From: a virus
Taxonomy: Duplodnaviria > Heunggongvirae > Uroviricota > Caudoviricetes
Length of the DNA: 34,527 nt
Virus record (IMG/VR): IMGVR_UViG_3300029702_000330
Direction: 5' to 3' (one strand)
The notes beneath the pieces are model-generated. The model saw nothing but the letters and a program-made list of their open reading frames with translations, had not been told where the DNA came from and searched no databases. Both the position numbers and the translations under genes were made by a program. Below are positions 1,659-27,488 of this stretch, piece after piece. Within the stretch, counting starts at the first letter, position 1. The number at the start of each line of letters is the position of its first letter.

Positions 1659-4130
1659 TTAAGAATCAGCCTGACTCGGGATCAGTTTTTGCCAGATAAC
1701 TGAAACGTATTTTGCCTGGTAACGGGCGTCATCAAGTGCATTATGGCGCTCACCTTCGAATGGAATAGCCGTTCTGGCATCGAAGTCTATGGCTTTCCCC
1801 AGCTCAACGATTGTGCGTACATCGCGATCGTTGTAGTAACGCCACGGGCAGGGGAGCCCCTGCCGTTCGTATGAACGGCGCAAAATCGTGTTGTCGAAGT
1901 TGGCTCCATTTCCCCAAACCTGAACAAAAAATTCACCGGAGTTTTCGTCGATAAATTCCCGCAATTGTAACAGTGCATCATCTAACGGGATTTCATCGGT
2001 CATAATGGCAGATTGCGCTTCGCGTGATTGCTTAAGCCACCATTTAATGGTGTCCCGATCAATGACTCCGCCAGCAGTTTCCAGATCGATAGTCTTACTA
2101 AATTCCGGTCCCATATCTCCGGTTTGCGGATCGAAAAATATTGCACCTATTGAGATGATCGGCGCATCAGGATTTTTTCCCATGGTTTCAAGGTCGATCA
2201 TTAGATGGTCACACGTCCTGCTGGTGGATGTGATTTCGTGATGACCGTTCACCTTAATTGGGTGATCTGCCGTCTCGCCAGTTTCATTATCGCTATTGTG
2301 ATGCTGATTGCCGCCAGTGTTCTCCTTGTGTGGATGTTCAGCGCCTTCCATTTCCTCCGGATCATCTTCCTGAACTTCAACCTGATACTCTTCATCGAAT
2401 GTTTCTTGGTATGTTGCGTCGCCCATCACCGCGCCACAATCAGGGCAGTTGCCGCCGCCGGTCTGACCGCAGGCGGTGCAGGCTTTTTCCACTTCCTGGT
2501 GCGCCACTGGTTCAGGCTGTTTCGTTTCTGGCTCGTTTTGTAACGCATTTGGACTGTTTTGTTCCGCTTTTTGGTAGTTCCGTTCCGATTCATGCTGGTT
2601 CTGGTTCACAGAATCGCGGGTCTGGATCCCCTTAACCCATTTCGGATCATTCGGGTCACTAATCCCTTCAACAAATTCACCACGTGATGCAGCAAGCAAC
2701 TTATCGGCGTCAGGCTGGCTGATATTGGCTGCCTGCATAATTTTGTTTACTTCGTCAGCGGTAACTTTTATCGGCTCTGGTTGTTCTGAATCTTCAGCGG
2801 TATCTACATTTTGCGGTAAGCCCGTGTATGTGCCATTTTTTCGGGCAAAATATTCTTCTTTTGTGATTTCAGTGGCGCCAGCAGCCAGTGCCTTATCCAG
2901 ACCAGAAAGTTTGTTTGCGCGACCGTATTTTTCTCCGTCCTTATCTGCGAAGAGGAAATAGAACGGCCCCTCACGCTCTACAGATGGTTCAGCTTCCGGC
3001 GCGGTTTCATTTTTTGGGATATCAGATACCTCAGTTTCCACTGCATCAGTTTGTGTTTCTGATGACTGGAGAACATCAACAGTGCCCAGGTCTGTTTCTT
3101 CATTCTCAAACACGCCCTTTGTCGTCAGGTATTCGCAGATATATTTGTTCAGTGCTACGGGATCTTTGTGAATGTCGATCGGACGCTCACGGACAAGGCC
3201 AAAAATAGTTTGGCGGTCGTAGCGAAGGGCATCAGGCTGTTTGCGCATTGATGCCGAGATACGCTTCCAGTCTTCGCGGTCGTTGTCGATAACTTCTTTT
3301 TTTGCCCAGCGATGGATGCTGCCGTCAATGTTTCTGGCATCCACATCACCAGGCCAGAGAGCGTAGGCCAGTTCGTCATCCAGTGTTTTCCATGTCTGCT
3401 TGTATTCGCGATGAATGGCAGCAATGACCGGGCTGATTTTTCCTGTTGAATTTTCAGTGTACTGTTGATTGGCTCTGGCGCGGGCGAGATCAACAACAGA
3501 CGTGTATTTTCCGGTTTCCTTGCGTTCACCTTCGCGACGTTTTTTCCAGATGCGCATCTCTGCCTGAATTTCGGGCCATTTAGCACCAGGAATACATTTA
3601 TGCTTAACCCACCCAATGGCGTGCAACTTAAGCTCCGGATACATGGCGTTAACTTCTGGCATTTTCATCAACGCTTCAACGATATGTCCGTCGAATGTTG
3701 CCATGTCTTCCTGCAACAATTCCTGTGCGCTAATAACCATATCAACGGTGATGTTTTCACATGTGTCGAACTTAACCATGACAGCGTTCTGTACTTCAGG
3801 GGCCAGCTTGTCAAAAGTGACGTTCATCGGATCGGATTCAGTCTCAACCGGGACAAAAGAAGCAGACTCCTCATCCCAGCGGTTTTCCTGCATATATTCA
3901 GCATCCCATGAATCGAGGGCAGGGCGGGGTATGCCAGGTTTATCCTCGCAGACGATAAATTTATAAGCGCAGTCCTGAGCAGCCGGATAATGTTCCAGGA
4001 ATTGCCAGTGAAATTTTGCTCGAGCACGGCGTTCGTCGCCAGCTTCAATGGCTGTGGCTACAGCCACAGCGCCTTCTTCCCTTGTTGCCAGTTCGTCAGG
4101 AATAGCGGCGCAAATAAAGACTTTACTCAT
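1659..4130 (-). CDS. Large phage exonuclease with C-terminal DnaQ-like (DEDDh) 3'-5' exonuclease domain; commonly annotated exodeoxyribonuclease VIII-like in prophages
   Basis: 823-aa ORF; C-terminus shows Exo I 'MIDLETMG', Exo II 'VWGNGANFDNTIL' and Exo III 'HNALDDARY' motifs; central acidic low-complexity linker and a CxxC...CxxC zinc-ribbon ('CTACGQ...CPDCG'). Confidence 0.7.
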   Translation of the reverse strand: MSKVFICAAIPDELATREEGAVAVATAIEAGDERRARAKFHWQFLEHYPAAQDCAYKFIVCEDKPGIPRPALDSWDAEYMQENRWDEESASFVPVETESDPMNVTFDKLAPEVQNAVMVKFDTCENITVDMVISAQELLQEDMATFDGHIVEALMKMPEVNAMYPELKLHAIGWVKHKCIPGAKWPEIQAEMRIWKKRREGERKETGKYTSVVDLARARANQQYTENSTGKISPVIAAIHREYKQTWKTLDDELAYALWPGDVDARNIDGSIHRWAKKEVIDNDREDWKRISASMRKQPDALRYDRQTIFGLVRERPIDIHKDPVALNKYICEYLTTKGVFENEETDLGTVDVLQSSETQTDAVETEVSDIPKNETAPEAEPSVEREGPFYFLFADKDGEKYGRANKLSGLDKALAAGATEITKEEYFARKNGTYTGLPQNVDTAEDSEQPEPIKVTADEVNKIMQAANISQPDADKLLAASRGEFVEGISDPNDPKWVKGIQTRDSVNQNQHESERNYQKAEQNSPNALQNEPETKQPEPVAHQEVEKACTACGQTGGGNCPDCGAVMGDATYQETFDEEYQVEVQEDDPEEMEGAEHPHKENTGGNQHHNSDNETGETADHPIKVNGHHEITSTSRTCDHLMIDLETMGKNPDAPIISIGAIFFDPQTGDMGPEFSKTIDLETAGGVIDRDTIKWWLKQSREAQSAIMTDEIPLDDALLQLREFIDENSGEFFVQVWGNGANFDNTILRRSYERQGLPCPWRYYNDRDVRTIVELGKAIDFDARTAIPFEGERHNALDDARYQAKYVSVIWQKLIPSQADS

Positions 4131-4223
4131 TTTGTTTTAACCTCATGACAGATTTAAGGATGAACAAATCCCTGCCATTGCTGGCATATAAAAATGAAAC
4201 CGGATATTTATTACGGAACTGTT

Positions 4224-4415
4224 TTAAAGACCTGCCGGGATTTCGATATTATCCTGGTGAATAACTTTATCGACCGGGTAACAGTTACCGGGAATTTTCT
4301 GTTCGGTTGCTGCAGTCATACACTCCTGCATTGTCCTGTGAACACTGACTGCAATATCAACTGGCACTCCGGAAACAAGAAAAACTGTCAGAACAAGTGC
4401 AAATGCTGAATTCAT
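4224..4415 (-). CDS. Hypothetical small protein with N-terminal signal-peptide-like hydrophobic segment (63 aa)
   Basis: 'MNSAFALVLTVFLVSG...' hydrophobic N-terminus; AAGGA-like RBS; ATGA overlap with the upstream small ORF. Confidence 0.3.
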   Translation of the reverse strand: MNSAFALVLTVFLVSGVPVDIAVSVHRTMQECMTAATEQKIPGNCYPVDKVIHQDNIEIPAGL

Positions 4416-23389: not shown

Positions 23390-23598
23390 ACCAGAATGAT
23401 ATCGAAGCCATGATTCAGCGTTATACGGAAGCTGAAATGGCGGTGCTGGACGGAAAATCCGTCACCTTTAATGGTCAGCAGATGACCATGGAAAACTTAT
23501 CTGAGATCCGGCAGGGACGGCAGGAGTGGGAGCGCCGCCTTGCGGCTCTGATTACACGACGACGGGGGCATCCCGGGTACCGGCTGGCGAGGTTCTGA
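23386..23598 (+). CDS. W: Head-tail joining protein W (gpW-like)
   Basis: 70 aa; ATGA overlap with terminase stop, GGAGGA RBS; C-terminal 'RRRGHPGY' resembles lambda W. Confidence 0.8.
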   Translation: MNQNDIEAMIQRYTEAEMAVLDGKSVTFNGQQMTMENLSEIRQGRQEWERRLAALITRRRGHPGYRLARF

Positions 23599-25106
23599 TG
23601 GCAATTCTTGATGATGTGATTGGCGTTTTTTCACCAGGATGGAAAGCGGCAAGGCTGCGTTCCCGTGCGGTGATCCAGGCTTATGAGGCCGTAAAAACGA
23701 CGCGGACACACAAAGCCCGGCGGGAAAACCGAACTGCCGACCAGTTAAGCCAGTACGGGGCCGTGTCGTTACGTGAGCAGGCCCGTTACCTTGATAACAA
23801 CCACGATCTGGTCATTGGTGTATTTGACAAGCTGGAAGAACGGGTGGTGGGGAAAAACGGGATTATTGTCGAGCCACATCCGGTATTACGCAATGGGGCC
23901 ATTGCCCGTGACCTGGCTGCGGAGATTCGCACCCGATGGAGTGAATGGTCTGTCAGCCCGGAAGTCACCGGGCAGTTTACCCGTCCGATGCTGGAACGTC
24001 TGATGCTGCGTACCTGGCTGCGCGATGGTGAGGTGTTTGCCCAGATGGTTTCCGGGCGCATAAACAGCCTGACGCCTTCTGCCGGTGTTCATTTCTGGCT
24101 GGAGGCACTCGAGCCGGACTTTATTCCCATGACCAGTGATGAGAGCAACAGGCTGAATCAGGGCGTGTTTGTTGATGACTGGGGGCGTCCCGAAAAATAT
24201 CTGGTGTATAAAAGTCGTCCTGTATCCGGACGGCAGATGGAAACCAAAGAAGTGGATGCAGAGCGAATGCTGCATCTTAAATTTGTTCGCCGTCTGCACC
24301 AGATGCGCGGGACGTCTTTATTGTCCGGTGTACTGATCCGCCTCAGTGCCCTGAAAGAGTATGAAGATTCTGAGCTGACTGCAGCAAGGATCGCCGCTGC
24401 TCTGGGGATGTACATCCGCAAAGGCGACGGGCAGAGCTATGAACCGGATGGTAATGGCAGCAAGGATAAGGAACGCGAGCTTACCATTCAGCCAGGCATT
24501 ATTTACGACGATCTGAAACCCGGCGAAGAAATCGGAATGGTGAAGTCGGATCGTCCCAATCCTAACCTTGAAACTTTTCGTAATGGTCAGTTGCGTGCAG
24601 TGGCGGCTGGCAGTCGTCTGAGTTTTTCCAGTACAGCGCGCAACTATAACGGCACTTACAGCGCCCAGCGTCAGGAGCTGGTTGAATCCACTGATGGCTA
24701 CCTGATCCTGCAGGACTGGTTTATTGGTGCCGTCACCCGCCCGATGTACCGTGCCTGGCTGAAACAGGCTGTGGCATCCGGTGTTATCAGGCTACCCCGC
24801 GATCTTGACCGTTCTTCACTGTATACCGCGGTGTATTCCGGACCGGTGATGCCGTGGATTGACCCTGTTAAGGAGGCTGAGGCCTGGAAAATCCAGATTC
24901 GTGGTGGAGCGGCGACAGAATCAGACTGGGTACGTGCTGGTGGTCGTAATCCGGATGATGTCAAACGTCGGCGCAAGGCCGAAATTGATGAAAACCGCAA
25001 GCTGGATCTGGTATTTGATACCGATCCGGCCAGTGATAAAGGAGGCAGCAGTGCCGCAACGAAACGACAGGAGCCGCAGCACATCGACGACCAGTCCGAA
25101 GAATAA
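23598..25106 (+). CDS. B: Portal protein (lambda gpB-like)
   Basis: 502 aa from ATG overlapping the W stop (TGATG); size and position as a lambda-family portal. Confidence 0.9.
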   Translation: MAILDDVIGVFSPGWKAARLRSRAVIQAYEAVKTTRTHKARRENRTADQLSQYGAVSLREQARYLDNNHDLVIGVFDKLEERVVGKNGIIVEPHPVLRNGAIARDLAAEIRTRWSEWSVSPEVTGQFTRPMLERLMLRTWLRDGEVFAQMVSGRINSLTPSAGVHFWLEALEPDFIPMTSDESNRLNQGVFVDDWGRPEKYLVYKSRPVSGRQMETKEVDAERMLHLKFVRRLHQMRGTSLLSGVLIRLSALKEYEDSELTAARIAAALGMYIRKGDGQSYEPDGNGSKDKERELTIQPGIIYDDLKPGEEIGMVKSDRPNPNLETFRNGQLRAVAAGSRLSFSSTARNYNGTYSAQRQELVESTDGYLILQDWFIGAVTRPMYRAWLKQAVASGVIRLPRDLDRSSLYTAVYSGPVMPWIDPVKEAEAWKIQIRGGAATESDWVRAGGRNPDDVKRRRKAEIDENRKLDLVFDTDPASDKGGSSAATKRQEPQHIDDQSEE

Positions 25107-27078
25107 TTCCTGGTTCAGGATGCAGGCTGGTCACCAGAGTGACGCGGATATTTATATTTATGACGAGATTGGTTTCTGGGGTGTTACAGCGAAGCAGTTT
25201 ATCAGTGATCTGAATGCACTGGGCGATATCACCCACATTAATCTCCATATCAATTCACCGGGTGGCGATGTCTTTGAAGGCATCGCCATTTTTAATGCAC
25301 TGAAAACACATGGTGCGTCCATTACCGTTTATGTCGACGGTGTGGCGGCGTCAATGGCGTCGGTCATTGCGATGGTGGGAAACCCGGTCATTATGCCGGA
25401 AAACACCTTCATGATGATTCATAAACCATTTGGCTTTACGGGCGGTGATGCGGAGGACATGCGCACCTATGCCGACCTGCTCGATAAGGTTGAGGCGGTT
25501 CTGTTACCCGCTTATGCACAGAAAACCGGGAAAACCACCGATGAAATTGCTGCCATGCTGGCGGATGAGACCTGGATGTCCGGTGCCGAATGTCTGGCAC
25601 AGGGATTTGCTGATCAGGTGACGCCAGCCGTTAAGGCAATGGCATGTATTCAGTCAAAACGTACAGAGGAATTTAAAAAGATGCCGGAATCCATTCGAAA
25701 CATGATTACTCCGCCACGCAACAGTGCTCCACGCGTACAGGATGATGAACCTGCAGCCTCCCGGACGCCAGTGCAGGCAGCAGCACCCGTGGTGGATGAA
25801 AACAGCATCCGTGCGCAGGTACTGGCAGAGCAAAAAGCGCGTGTAAACGGTATTAATGATCTGTTTGCCATGTTTGGCGGGCGTTATCAGACGCTGCAGG
25901 CTCAGTGTCTTGCCGATCCTGAATGTTCGCTGGAGCAGGCCCGCGAAAAGCTGTTGAACGAGATGGGGCGCGAGTCCACGCCATCCAATAAAAATACCCC
26001 GGCTCATATTTATGCCGGTAACGGTAATTTTGTGGGGGACGGGATCCGCCAGGCGCTGATGGCGCGTGCCGGATTTGAAAAAACCGAACGTGATAATGTC
26101 TACAACGGCATGACCCTGCGTGAATATGCCCGTATGTCACTGACTGAACGGGGTATTGGGGTTTCCAGTTATAACCCGATGCAGATGGTCGGTGCGGCGT
26201 TCACACACAGTACGTCTGACTTCGGTAATATTCTGCTGGATGTTGCGAACAAAGCCATTCTGCAGGGCTGGGAAGATGCCCCTGAAACCTATGAACAGTG
26301 GACGCGGAAAGGTCAGTTGTCTGATTTTAAAATTGCCCATCGTGTGGGTATGGGGGGCTTCAGTGCTCTGCGTCAGGTGCGTGAAGGGGCGGAATATAAA
26401 TACGTCACCACCGGAGATAAACAGGCCACTATTGCACTGGCGACCTATGGCGAGCTGTTCAGTATCACCCGTCAGGCCATTATCAATGATGATCTGAATA
26501 TGCTGACCGATGTCCCGATGAAACTGGGCCGTGCGGCGAAATCCACTATTGCCGATCTGGTTTATGCCATTCTGACGTCTAACCCGAAAATCTCCACAGA
26601 TAATGTAAGTCTGTTCGATAAAGCGAAACATGCAAACGTACTGGAGAGCGCTGCAATGGACGTGGCATCGCTGGATAAAGCCCGCCAGTTGATGCGCGTT
26701 CAGAAAGAGGGGGAGCGTCATCTGAATATTCGTCCTGCGTTCGTACTGGTACCGACGGCGATGGAGTCTGTTGCTAACCAGGTCATTCGCTCCTCAAGTG
26801 TCAAGGGGGCTGACATTAACGCCGGTATTATTAACCCGGTGAAAGATTTTGCGACCGTTATTGCAGAGCCTCGTCTTGATGATAACAGCCAGACCACCTT
26901 CTACCTGGCTGCGTCAAAAGGCTCCGATACGATTGAAGTGGCTTATCTCAACGGTGTGGATACGCCATATATTGATCAGATGGAGGGCTTCAGTGTGGAT
27001 GGCGTGACAACGAAAGTGCGTATTGACGCCGGTGTCGCGCCAGTTGATCACCGTGGTCTGGTGAAATGTACGGCGTAA
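25051..27078 (+). CDS. Prohead protease (ClpP/S14-like) fused to scaffold-like linker and major capsid protein
   Basis: GTG start with GGAGG 5 nt upstream; N-terminal ClpP-like core ('GVAASMASVIAMVG', 'MIHKP'); C-terminal roughly 350 aa capsid-like; followed by a terminator. Confidence 0.85.
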   Translation: MPQRNDRSRSTSTTSPKNNSWFRMQAGHQSDADIYIYDEIGFWGVTAKQFISDLNALGDITHINLHINSPGGDVFEGIAIFNALKTHGASITVYVDGVAASMASVIAMVGNPVIMPENTFMMIHKPFGFTGGDAEDMRTYADLLDKVEAVLLPAYAQKTGKTTDEIAAMLADETWMSGAECLAQGFADQVTPAVKAMACIQSKRTEEFKKMPESIRNMITPPRNSAPRVQDDEPAASRTPVQAAAPVVDENSIRAQVLAEQKARVNGINDLFAMFGGRYQTLQAQCLADPECSLEQAREKLLNEMGRESTPSNKNTPAHIYAGNGNFVGDGIRQALMARAGFEKTERDNVYNGMTLREYARMSLTERGIGVSSYNPMQMVGAAFTHSTSDFGNILLDVANKAILQGWEDAPETYEQWTRKGQLSDFKIAHRVGMGGFSALRQVREGAEYKYVTTGDKQATIALATYGELFSITRQAIINDDLNMLTDVPMKLGRAAKSTIADLVYAILTSNPKISTDNVSLFDKAKHANVLESAAMDVASLDKARQLMRVQKEGERHLNIRPAFVLVPTAMESVANQVIRSSSVKGADINAGIINPVKDFATVIAEPRLDDNSQTTFYLAASKGSDTIEVAYLNGVDTPYIDQMEGFSVDGVTTKVRIDAGVAPVDHRGLVKCTA

Positions 27079-27100: not shown

Positions 27101-27120
27101 TGGCCCGTAAGGGCTTTTTT
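27101..27120 (+). terminator. Rho-independent terminator after the capsid gene
   Basis: GGCCCGTAAGGGC hairpin followed by TTTTTTT. Confidence 0.5.
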
Positions 27121-27164
27121 TGTACCTGAAATCAGCCCCTGAACGGGGCTGTGCGGAGACAGTT

Positions 27165-27488
27165 ATGGCAAAGAATTTTGTAGAAGAAGGAAAAACGGTG
27201 GCGATTGTTGCCAGTGCAGCCATCAGCAGCGGAGATCTGGTGCAGGTGGGTGATGTTTTTGCGGTGGCGCTGACCGATATTCCACAGGGTGAAACAGGCG
27301 ACGGCATGACCGAAGGTGTGTTTATGCTGCCTAAGCTGAAAACGGATGATATGAAAACGGGTAAGAAGGTTTATCTGAAGTCCGGAAAAGTTCAGCTGAC
27401 TAACAGCGGCTCTGATCCGCTGGTCGGGGTTGTCTGGGCAGATGCCGGAACCAGTGCAGAAGAAGTGCCGGTAAAACTCAATGTCTGA
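27165..27488 (+). CDS. Hypothetical head protein (108 aa), commonly found directly after major capsid genes
   Basis: GGAG RBS; position between capsid and head-tail connector genes. Confidence 0.55.
   Translation: MAKNFVEEGKTVAIVASAAISSGDLVQVGDVFAVALTDIPQGETGDGMTEGVFMLPKLKTDDMKTGKKVYLKSGKVQLTNSGSDPLVGVVWADAGTSAEEVPVKLNV

Follow-up and report, generated by a model that had tools for sequence, protein, structure and literature searches.

A ClpP-like protease, scaffold and major capsid protein fusion gene of a widespread lambdoid prophage, with a candidate internal start for a protease-less product

The ORF at 25051..27078 of the window (the whole 34,527-nucleotide stretch of viral DNA analysed, IMG/VR record IMGVR_UViG_3300029702_000330; all features given here lie on its plus strand) is in all likelihood the single head-shell gene of a lambdoid prophage of the mEp460/cdtI/Ayreon type, whose product would mature by proteolysis and may be accompanied by a second product from an internal start. 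It encodes a ClpP-like prohead protease/scaffold/major capsid protein precursor of 675 aa and 73.5 kDa, made up of five parts: a ClpP-fold protease, an F-x-x-x-P motif, a disordered linker, a three-helix segment and an HK97-fold capsid domain. The protein is already catalogued, and neither its architecture nor its family name is new. The probable internal start is the sole fresh lead of this analysis.

The ORF has GTG at 25051, 675 codons and a TAA stop at 27076-27078. A Shine-Dalgarno (SD) sequence, AGGAGG, is read at 25040..25045 with a spacer of 5 nt to the GTG, and its predicted pairing with the anti-SD (-11.6 kcal/mol) is the best among all in-frame start codons of the ORF. RefSeq PGAP annotates a CDS (WP_016243797.1) whose coordinates, 1752-3779 of its locus, correspond to 25051-27078 of the window and are thus identical. 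The earlier note had described a 675-aa ORF initiated by GTG behind a perfect GGAGG, with which both observations agree. It was also right in dismissing a longer start at 24859 as an artefact; the codon at that position is TTG and not the ATG that it had named.

Several GenBank phage records (among them those of cdtI, Ayreon and PhiR40_1) choose ATG 25120 (Met24) as the start, which would give a protein of 652 aa. ATG is a commoner start codon than GTG, this one lies 14 nt past the portal stop, where re-initiation is conceivable, and the NCBIfam model of the fusion protein starts near aa 31. Nevertheless, ATG 25120 nearly lacks an SD (-2.2 kcal/mol), whereas AGGAGG-N5-GTG is kept in a Stx-phage lineage with an overall identity of just 78%, and PGAP picks 25051. 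At protein level, Trp21, upstream of Met24, is kept in 48 of 63 aligned homologs, in which the Met24 position is usually Ile, and distant homologs begin about 5 residues (median) ahead of the equivalent of this Trp. In the AlphaFold2 (AF2) model the first beta-strand (residues 22-26), which begins before Met24, belongs to the confidently modelled fold. The GTG at 25051 is therefore better supported, and the shorter protein is an unlikely alternative.

At family level, aa 32-674 of the protein match positions 2-651 of the 652 of NCBIfam NF045540 (scaf_prot_MCP1) with 985.1 bits (cutoff 475), and RefSeq uses the name of this family, 'ClpP-like prohead protease/major capsid protein fusion protein'. 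It also passes NF045542 (216 bits, cutoff 120) and matches PHROG 133 from end to end, and its AF2 model has a mean pLDDT of 87.9. NF045540, WP_016243797.1 and PHROG 133 represent the same protein as the window gene, with the same architecture and neighbours. The NF045540 entry bears an annotation-derived name and does not annotate an internal start.

The ClpP-fold serine protease domain occupies aa 22-195 (25114..25635), with a Pfam CLP_protease match at aa 31-191 (E 4e-36). A ClpP/S14-like core had been proposed in the earlier note, which made its claim depend on a protease fold within the first 200 aa, and the domain search finds the fold there. The candidate catalytic residues Ser101 (25351-25353) and His124 (25420-25422) are invariant in 87 of 87 homologs. 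Glu173 (25567-25569) aligns with the catalytic Asp of ClpP (Asp171), and this position is acidic in 83 of the 87 (75 Glu and 8 Asp). Since both the fold and the Ser-His residues match those of ClpP, we considered that the domain could be a cellular-type ClpP subunit acting with ClpX/ClpA in ATP-dependent proteolysis and not in capsid maturation. However, the score with the bona fide ClpP model TIGR00493 was 58.6 bits, below its cutoff of 308.6, that with PRK00277 was 77.7 against 249, and all the PRK ClpP models stayed under their cutoffs, whereas the head-maturation model passes. Moreover, ClpP Asp171 is replaced by Glu, and the protease is covalently joined to a capsid protein, between portal and cement genes, at all loci examined. 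A cellular role is thus very improbable. As regards the SppA/S49 proteases, TIGR00706 gave 22.3 bits against a cutoff of 155, and no Peptidase_S49 match appeared in the Pfam scan of the fusion protein.

The conserved F-x-x-x-P motif directly follows the protease domain. Behind it, aa 223-248 (25717..25794) form a disordered, hypervariable linker rich in Pro, Ala, Thr and Gln, with a pLDDT below 50, whose length varies and which cannot be aligned even in close relatives (gap fraction up to 0.81). The next segment, aa 249-306 (25795..25968), is scaffold-like (delta-domain-like) and consists of three helices (250-273, 280-288 and 294-306) modelled with high pLDDT. The scaffold-like linker of the earlier note is thus found as two elements between protease and capsid domains, one disordered and one helical. 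A low-confidence loop follows at aa 307-326 (25969..26028), with mean pLDDT of 53 in block 311-320 and 76 in block 321-330, and carries insertions among homologs.

The capsid part covers aa 327-675 (26029..27075) and comprises N-terminal helices and then an HK97-fold core with its spine helix at 483-510. Pfam Phage_capsid_4 matches aa 375-672 (E 9e-55), and the capsid-like C-terminal domain that had been suggested is well founded. The Mu gpT family (PF10124) scores 33.4 bits against a gathering cutoff of 20.1, over profile positions 219-287 of 289 only, and the capsid domain also matches the Mu-like capsid structures PDB 8rkc and 8rkx (E 7e-4). By its sequence matches, this domain appears to be related to gpT without clearly belonging to that family. 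The scaffold-like segment and the capsid part are common to NF045541, which matches from aa 220, and to PHROG 4523.

In its head-assembly operon the fusion gene stands between the portal gene and the genes for head completion and the tail, in the order terminase, W-like, portal, fusion, cement, FII-like, Z, U and tube. The portal gene, of the lambda B family (23598..25106, RefSeq CDS; Pfam Phage_portal_2, E 6e-82), shares the 56 nt of its 3' end with the fusion ORF in a different frame. Downstream, 27165..27488 (RefSeq start) encodes a capsid cement or decoration protein (DUF2190, Phage_cement_2; Pfam E 1.4e-20), which also matches PHROG 122, 'head decoration'. The portal-fusion-cement order recurs in distant loci: a cement gene follows the fusion gene in eight of nine, and the ninth (L016) ends just past the fusion gene. 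The cement gene is hence a constant downstream partner.

Of 5426 complete E. coli genomes, 2136 carry the gene as part of a prophage of the mEp460/cdtI/Ayreon type, and 1516 records have it with at least 99% identity; that an ORF of 2 kb should recur identically in >1500 genomes lies well outside what chance would give. At E<=1e-30, 7048 clusters (50% identity) match the protein, and the best 150 of these 7048 are mostly full-length fusions with 35-50% identity. The window shares 99.4-99.6% identity over the fusion gene with phages Ayreon and phi458. Both phages are inducible and form virions, and Ayreon heads are icosahedral and of about 57 nm (PMC5764929; PMC9701743). These distribution data refute the idea that two separate genes have been united here by faulty assembly or in a pseudogene. 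Erroneous joins do exist here in the protein database, including 1159-aa portal+fusion chimeras and other composites, but viable phages and thousands of independent genomes all carry the ORF without interruption, as do thousands of diverged clusters, so that an artefact is hardly conceivable.

The 1159-aa proteins were also considered as products of a programmed frameshift giving a portal-protease-capsid polyprotein. Their frame junctions are scattered across 24859-25106, where both frames are open, which points to 1-nt indels or assembly errors and not to a frameshift signal. Two proteins were rejected as natural unfused relatives. The first (P0166) has 443 aa and is encoded behind a ClpP gene of 201 aa in locus L007; because the two genes do not share a frame and the sequence around them is garbled, a frameshift error or a pseudogene is indicated. 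The second (P0231), from a contig of 1.5 kb, says nothing about domain boundaries.

By analogy with HK97, lambda and Mu, a maturation pathway can be proposed. Translation would begin at GTG 25051, within the end of the portal gene, and give the 73.5-kDa precursor, whose capsid domains would assemble on the portal into a procapsid shell, the N-terminal parts facing inward. Crowding would then activate the protease, which would excise itself and the scaffold segment. The remaining mature capsid protein, of about 33-38 kDa, would expand upon DNA packaging, and the expanded shell may be stabilised by the downstream cement protein. Autoproteolytic release of the mature capsid protein, which the earlier note had read from the fusion, can reasonably be inferred. 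The candidate maturation cleavage would fall between about aa 307 and 375, the loop at aa 307-326 being plausibly its earliest position. A conservation search in the fusion family revealed no convincing cleavage-site motif, and the literature searched for virion mass spectrometry, an N-terminal sequence, a protease mutant or a cleavage site in this family yielded none.

A wider question is how some 415 subunits can form a shell if the precursor of each has a folded protease attached. The candidate internal start could offer a simple answer. At 25666..25683 the sequence presents GAGGA (25666-25670), an A-rich spacer and ATG 25681, which encodes Met211, just past the protease domain and within the conserved F-x-x-x-P motif. 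Initiation there would yield a scaffold+capsid product of 465 aa (50.7 kDa) without protease, nested in the manner of lambda Nu3 in C, and most of the shell could form from such subunits. In the window, the SD of this ATG (-6.0 kcal/mol) ranks third of 26 in-frame ATGs and is the minimum within +/-40 codons; it is only moderate, and its spacer is rather long (10 nt). The predicted opening energy of 3.6 kcal/mol, against a median of 8.3, ranks second of 26. GAG GAA N9 ATG is kept in the clade of the window, in E. coli, Serratia and Rahnella, and in a Vibrio relative the internal SD is weak and ranks fifth of 25.

The signal was examined at DNA level in 11 full-length relatives, one NF045541 gene and two truncated copies. 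Nearly all homologs have a Met in the linker, preceded by Glu-rich residues and followed by P, T, S, A or K. Among nine distant homologs, taken in list order, the linker ATG has the best SD of the 19-29 in-frame ATGs in eight and the second best in the other; in genes with two linker Mets the analyst chose which one counted, and the binomial P of about 1e-7 allows for two candidates per gene. The signal is local, within the lowest 2.5-12% inside +/-40 codons of the ATG, and the predicted mRNA opening energy at the linker ATG is under the median of its gene in 11 of 12 genes. In the Sphingomonas gene representing the NF045541 fusion, an equivalent SD and ATG are present, the SD of Met220 ranking first of 10. 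As judged from these sequence signals, the case is statistically strong across the family and moderate in the window gene. A second, protease-less product is rather likely for the family as a whole, and for this particular gene it can be put forward tentatively, its chances being close to even.

A rival reading is that there is one product only: GTG 25051 would serve for all of the about 415 capsid subunits, each made as a full precursor of 675 aa with its own protease. The SD-like words ahead of Met211 and of the corresponding Mets would then simply reflect the Glu-rich composition of the linker or a peptide constraint. Indeed, Met211 lies inside the conserved motif, so that nucleotide conservation there is explainable by protein constraint, and the purine-rich composition that goes with a Glu-rich linker by itself favours SD-like words. 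The moderate SD and long spacing in the window agree with this reading, as does the absence of an internal start of the fusion gene from all the database and GenBank records checked; none is described either in the non-subscription literature searched. On the other hand, the linker ATG has the top SD in eight of nine distant genes, with a signal confined near that ATG and not linker-wide, it is favourably accessible in 11 of 12 genes, and the residue after the linker Met is typical of protein N-termini. In addition, a rough estimate, in which we assume T=7 and, for the inside of the procapsid, a radius of about 19-20 nm, gives 415 x 35.5 kDa = 14.7 MDa of internal protein, more than half of the cavity, and 5.2 MDa without the protease domain. 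Production of the full precursor alone is for these reasons a real possibility that we hold to be somewhat less probable than an even chance.

If the internal start is real, the protease:shell ratio would be set as by lambda C/Nu3 and this principle would be extended to protease-capsid fusions. In lambda, the Nu3 gene forms an in-frame part of the C gene (PMC8508860, citing Shaw and Murialdo 1980), an arrangement that the window candidate would mirror. The earlier note had taken C, Nu3 and E of lambda as three separate genes, which is correct for E and not for Nu3 and C. The window gene has the same place in the lambda-type head operon as these genes, after a portal of the lambda family, and the two systems have a common logic of protease, scaffold, shell and decoration or cement protein. 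They differ in that lambda has an SppA/S49-type protease, a type that the window protease does not match, and in that E is a separate gene, the Pfam matches of the window capsid being of the gpT type and not of the lambda E family. HK97 gp5 consists of a delta domain and the capsid, so that its scaffold function, like that of the window protein, is built in N-terminally to an HK97 fold; the phage protease removes it after assembly, as it would in the window phage. The HK97 gp4 protease has a herpesvirus-protease-like fold and is encoded by a separate gene, unlike the window protease, which has a ClpP fold and is fused to the capsid. The window capsid belongs to the group related to Mu gpT, with a match that spans part of the domain. 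In Mu, the scaffold Z is nested in the protease gene I, the protease is of another family than that of the window, and T is a separate gene.

Other fusions are known. Pseudomonas phage MD8 gp5 (693 aa) and Paracoccus prophage fusions of about 700 aa have the three-part arrangement already published (PMC8508860; PMC6536676): like the window gene, they join a ClpP/S14-type protease, a scaffold-like middle and a Mu gpT/HK97-like capsid. They come from other hosts, have diverged sequences, are based on bioinformatic arguments only and are described with no mention of a nested start. NF045541 (scaf_prot_MCP2), with which the window protein has the scaffold and capsid part in common from aa 220, is a further protease-capsid fusion with a different N-terminal protease domain; the window protein scores 400 bits against its cutoff of 525 and is not a member. 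By description, the protease-capsid fusions of Arthrobacter cluster AM/AU/AN (PMC5513430) can also be likened to the window gene.

The prophage type that carries the fusion gene is among the commonest of E. coli, the protein family is named and very widespread, and automated annotation gives the gene its correct name. In many GenBank phage records the gene still goes under the labels 'protease', 'Nu3', 'scaffold' or 'hypothetical', and in several the chosen start codon probably shortens the protein. A sigma-70 promoter was looked for within the region and none was found. Between the fusion and cement genes, at 27102..27122, there is a terminator-like hairpin, GGCCCGTAAGGGC, followed by a T-run, and the phage Ayreon record annotates the equivalent hairpin as a terminator.

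In the window, the plus-strand frame of the fusion gene is uninterrupted from 24859 to the TAA stop codon at 27076–27078. Among the in-frame starts, only the GTG codon at 25051, preceded by AGGAGG (25040–25045) with a 5-nt spacer, has a strong ribosome-binding site, and its predicted anti-Shine-Dalgarno pairing (−11.6 kcal/mol) is the best among all in-frame ATG, GTG and TTG codons. The resulting product has 675 aa (73.5 kDa), and the RefSeq/PGAP CDS WP_016243797.1 has the same coordinates (25051–27078). Both data confirmed the GTG-initiated ORF with a perfect Shine-Dalgarno (SD) described in the earlier note; the upstream-most start at 24859, which was given there as ATG, reads TTG. GenBank records place the start at ATG 25120 (cdtI, Ayreon and PhiR40_1) or around 24954 (Tritos). 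Several lines of evidence favour GTG 25051. ATG 25120 essentially lacks an SD (−2.2 kcal/mol), and AGGAGG-N5-GTG is identical in the Stx-phage lineage, whose overall identity is only 78%. The alignment of 89 sequences shows a conserved Trp21 and mostly Ile in the Met24 column, and distant homologs start a median of about 5 residues ahead of the Trp21 position. Finally, the predicted protease fold confidently includes strand 22–26. An inverted repeat, TCCTG-GTT-CAGGA (25108–25120), abuts ATG 25120 within a fully conserved stretch past the portal stop codon; it may be a mere consequence of the conserved Ser-Trp-Phe-Arg codons.

Pfam, PHROGs and NCBIfam concurred on the identity of the fusion protein. 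The domain search identified CLP_protease at aa 31–191 (E 4e-36) and Phage_capsid_4 at aa 375–672 (E 9e-55), as had been anticipated from the sequence for both ends of the protein, together with a partial match to Mu-like_gpT (33.4 bits). PHROGs phrog_133 matched end to end (1202 bits), and the NCBIfam models NF045540, [quoted passage not shown] (985 bits, cutoff 475), and NF045542, "head maturation protease, ClpP-related" (216 bits, cutoff 120), were also matched. Every model for genuine ClpP scored far under its cutoff. All 87 full-length homologs keep Ser101 and His124, and 83 of them have Glu or Asp at the position of Glu173, which aligns with the catalytic Asp of ClpP. Sequence similarity to Mu GpT-domain capsid proteins (PDB 8rkc/8rkx) was detected at E 7e-4.

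The AlphaFold2 model, built from 89 homologs (mean pLDDT 87.9), predicts a disordered N-terminus (aa 1–17), a ClpP fold (22–195), two short helices bearing a conserved F-x-x-x-P motif (203–219), a disordered linker (223–248), three helices (250–306), a low-confidence loop (307–326) and, at 327–675, helices followed by an HK97-type core with a long spine helix (483–510). The scaffold-like linker of the earlier note corresponds to the disordered segment plus the three helices. The disordered segment is rich in Pro, Ala, Thr and Gln, and its length differs even between relatives 76–96% identical. Just after the protease, at 25642–25686 (aa 198–212), the window carries R-T-E-E-F-K-K-M-P, which is F/Y-D-x-x-x-F-x-x-x-P in distant homologs; in the homolog alignment Pro212 is more than 90% conserved and the flanks poorly so. 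The motif may serve in docking or cleavage.

The fusion region is 99–99.6% identical to phages mEp460, cdtI, Ayreon, Tritos, phi458 and others, and of 5426 complete E. coli genomes 2136 carry it. Both Ayreon and phi458 can be induced and produce virions, with icosahedral heads of about 57 nm in Ayreon (PMC5764929; PMC9701743); the fusion gene therefore serves viable phages as their only shell gene. At E≤1e-30, exhaustive searching with HMMER retrieved 7048 clusters defined at 50% identity, the best 150 of which are mostly full-length fusions of 640–740 aa with 35–50% identity. The same architecture has been published for gp5 of Pseudomonas phage MD8 (PMC8508860) and for one third of Paracoccus siphovirus prophages (PMC6536676), and other protease-capsid fusions are found in Arthrobacter phages (PMC5513430). 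As the family is named in NCBIfam and PHROGs, automatically annotated and described in the literature, the fusion is real and was rightly interpreted, but it is not new.

Many 1159-aa "portal+protease+capsid" proteins, 99% identical to the window, exist in the public protein collection. Their junctions are scattered across 24859–25106, where both frames are open, which points to single-base indels or assembly errors and led us to reject a programmed frameshift. At 2411–4386 of the locus in GCA_000755365.1 (BBMQ01000056.1), a 201-aa ClpP-like gene precedes a 443-aa scaffold+capsid gene. This was not accepted as a natural two-gene arrangement, since the parts lie in different frames and the protein sequence is locally garbled; a frameshift error or prophage decay is the likeliest cause of the split. 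In the Stx1 prophage VT1-Sakai (AP000400.1, locus positions 2650–3959), an IS629 insertion breaks the homologous fusion gene into two parts, labelled "scaffolding protein" and "hypothetical protein", which leaves this prophage unable to produce capsid protein of its own.

The window holds a complete lambdoid prophage, in which integrase, Q antiterminator, lysozyme, DUF1441, large terminase, W-like and lambda-family portal genes precede the fusion gene, which is followed by those of a cement/decoration protein, an FII-like protein, Z, U and a lambda-type tail tube. The cement-protein gene also follows in 8 of the 9 distant loci compared, these eight being the ones with downstream sequence. A terminator-like hairpin, GGCCCGTAAGGGC, with a T-run (27102–27122) separates the fusion and cement genes, midway through the late operon. 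It bears a terminator annotation in Ayreon and might cause the head-completion and tail genes beyond it to be expressed less than the shell gene. In the early/accessory region, the 604-aa product of 9011–10825 (plus strand) has a GmrSD_N restriction-endonuclease domain at its N-terminus, and its gene is probably anti-phage defence cargo. Adjoining the integrase, 1659–4130 (minus strand) encodes an 823-aa protein whose first ~640 residues gave no family match and whose C-terminus is an Rv2179c-like 3'-5' exoribonuclease domain (E 2e-67).

The analysis establishes how the domains are ordered, that the catalytic residues are intact, that the linker is flexible, that helices precede the HK97 fold, and that portal and cement genes are the neighbours. 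By analogy with HK97, lambda and Mu, the capsid domains would build the shell on the portal with the N-terminal parts inward; the protease would next cut off itself and the helical scaffold-like part, and the remaining ~33–38 kDa protein (aa ~307–375 to 675) would expand and be bound by the cement protein. The literature search yielded neither an experimental cleavage site nor a virion proteome for the fusion family.

The part worth pursuing is a conserved candidate site of internal initiation. Nearly all diverged homologs have a Met soon past the protease domain, with Glu-rich residues at −3 to −6 (e.g. kpneeieM, lpteeptM, krieeliM) and P, T, S, A or K after it. Since Glu-Glu is encoded by GAR-GAR, an SD is placed 7–10 nt upstream of the ATG. 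In the DNA of nine distant homologs, chosen in list order and scanned from −18 to −5, the SD of this linker ATG was the strongest of 19–29 in-frame ATGs in eight and the second in the other (binomial P ~1e-7, allowing for two candidate Mets per gene), often equalling or exceeding that of the annotated start. The signal was confined to the linker ATG (lowest 2.5–12% within ±40 codons), and in 11 of 12 genes the mRNA opening energy predicted there fell under the median for that gene. A member of NF045541, a separate fusion family with a different protease but a common scaffold+capsid part, has the same feature (Met220, SD rank 1/10). These sequence signals suggest that the family probably makes a nested protease-less product.

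The equivalent codon in the window is ATG 25681 (Met211, plus strand), in the context ACA GAG GAA TTT AAA AAG ATG. Its SD energy (−6.0 kcal/mol) is a local minimum ranking third of 26 in-frame ATGs, and its predicted opening energy (3.6 kcal/mol vs. a median of 8.3) ranks second of 26, so that this site surpasses the main start in accessibility. Its weak points are a moderate SD and a long spacer. GAG GAA N9 ATG is retained in Serratia and Rahnella relatives and is weaker in a Vibrio relative; this nucleotide conservation is not independent evidence because Met211 lies within a conserved peptide motif. Initiation at Met211 would yield a 465-aa, 50.7-kDa scaffold+capsid product without protease, following the same logic as lambda, in which Nu3 is nested in C. 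Judged from its sequence, production of such a nested protein by the window's own gene is a serious possibility that falls just short of probable. A rough steric estimate, taking T=7, 415 subunits and about 19–20 nm as the inner radius of the procapsid, points the same way: with protease, linker and scaffold on all subunits, ~14.7 MDa would have to fit within the shell and would occupy over half of its volume, against ~5.2 MDa for the protease-less form.
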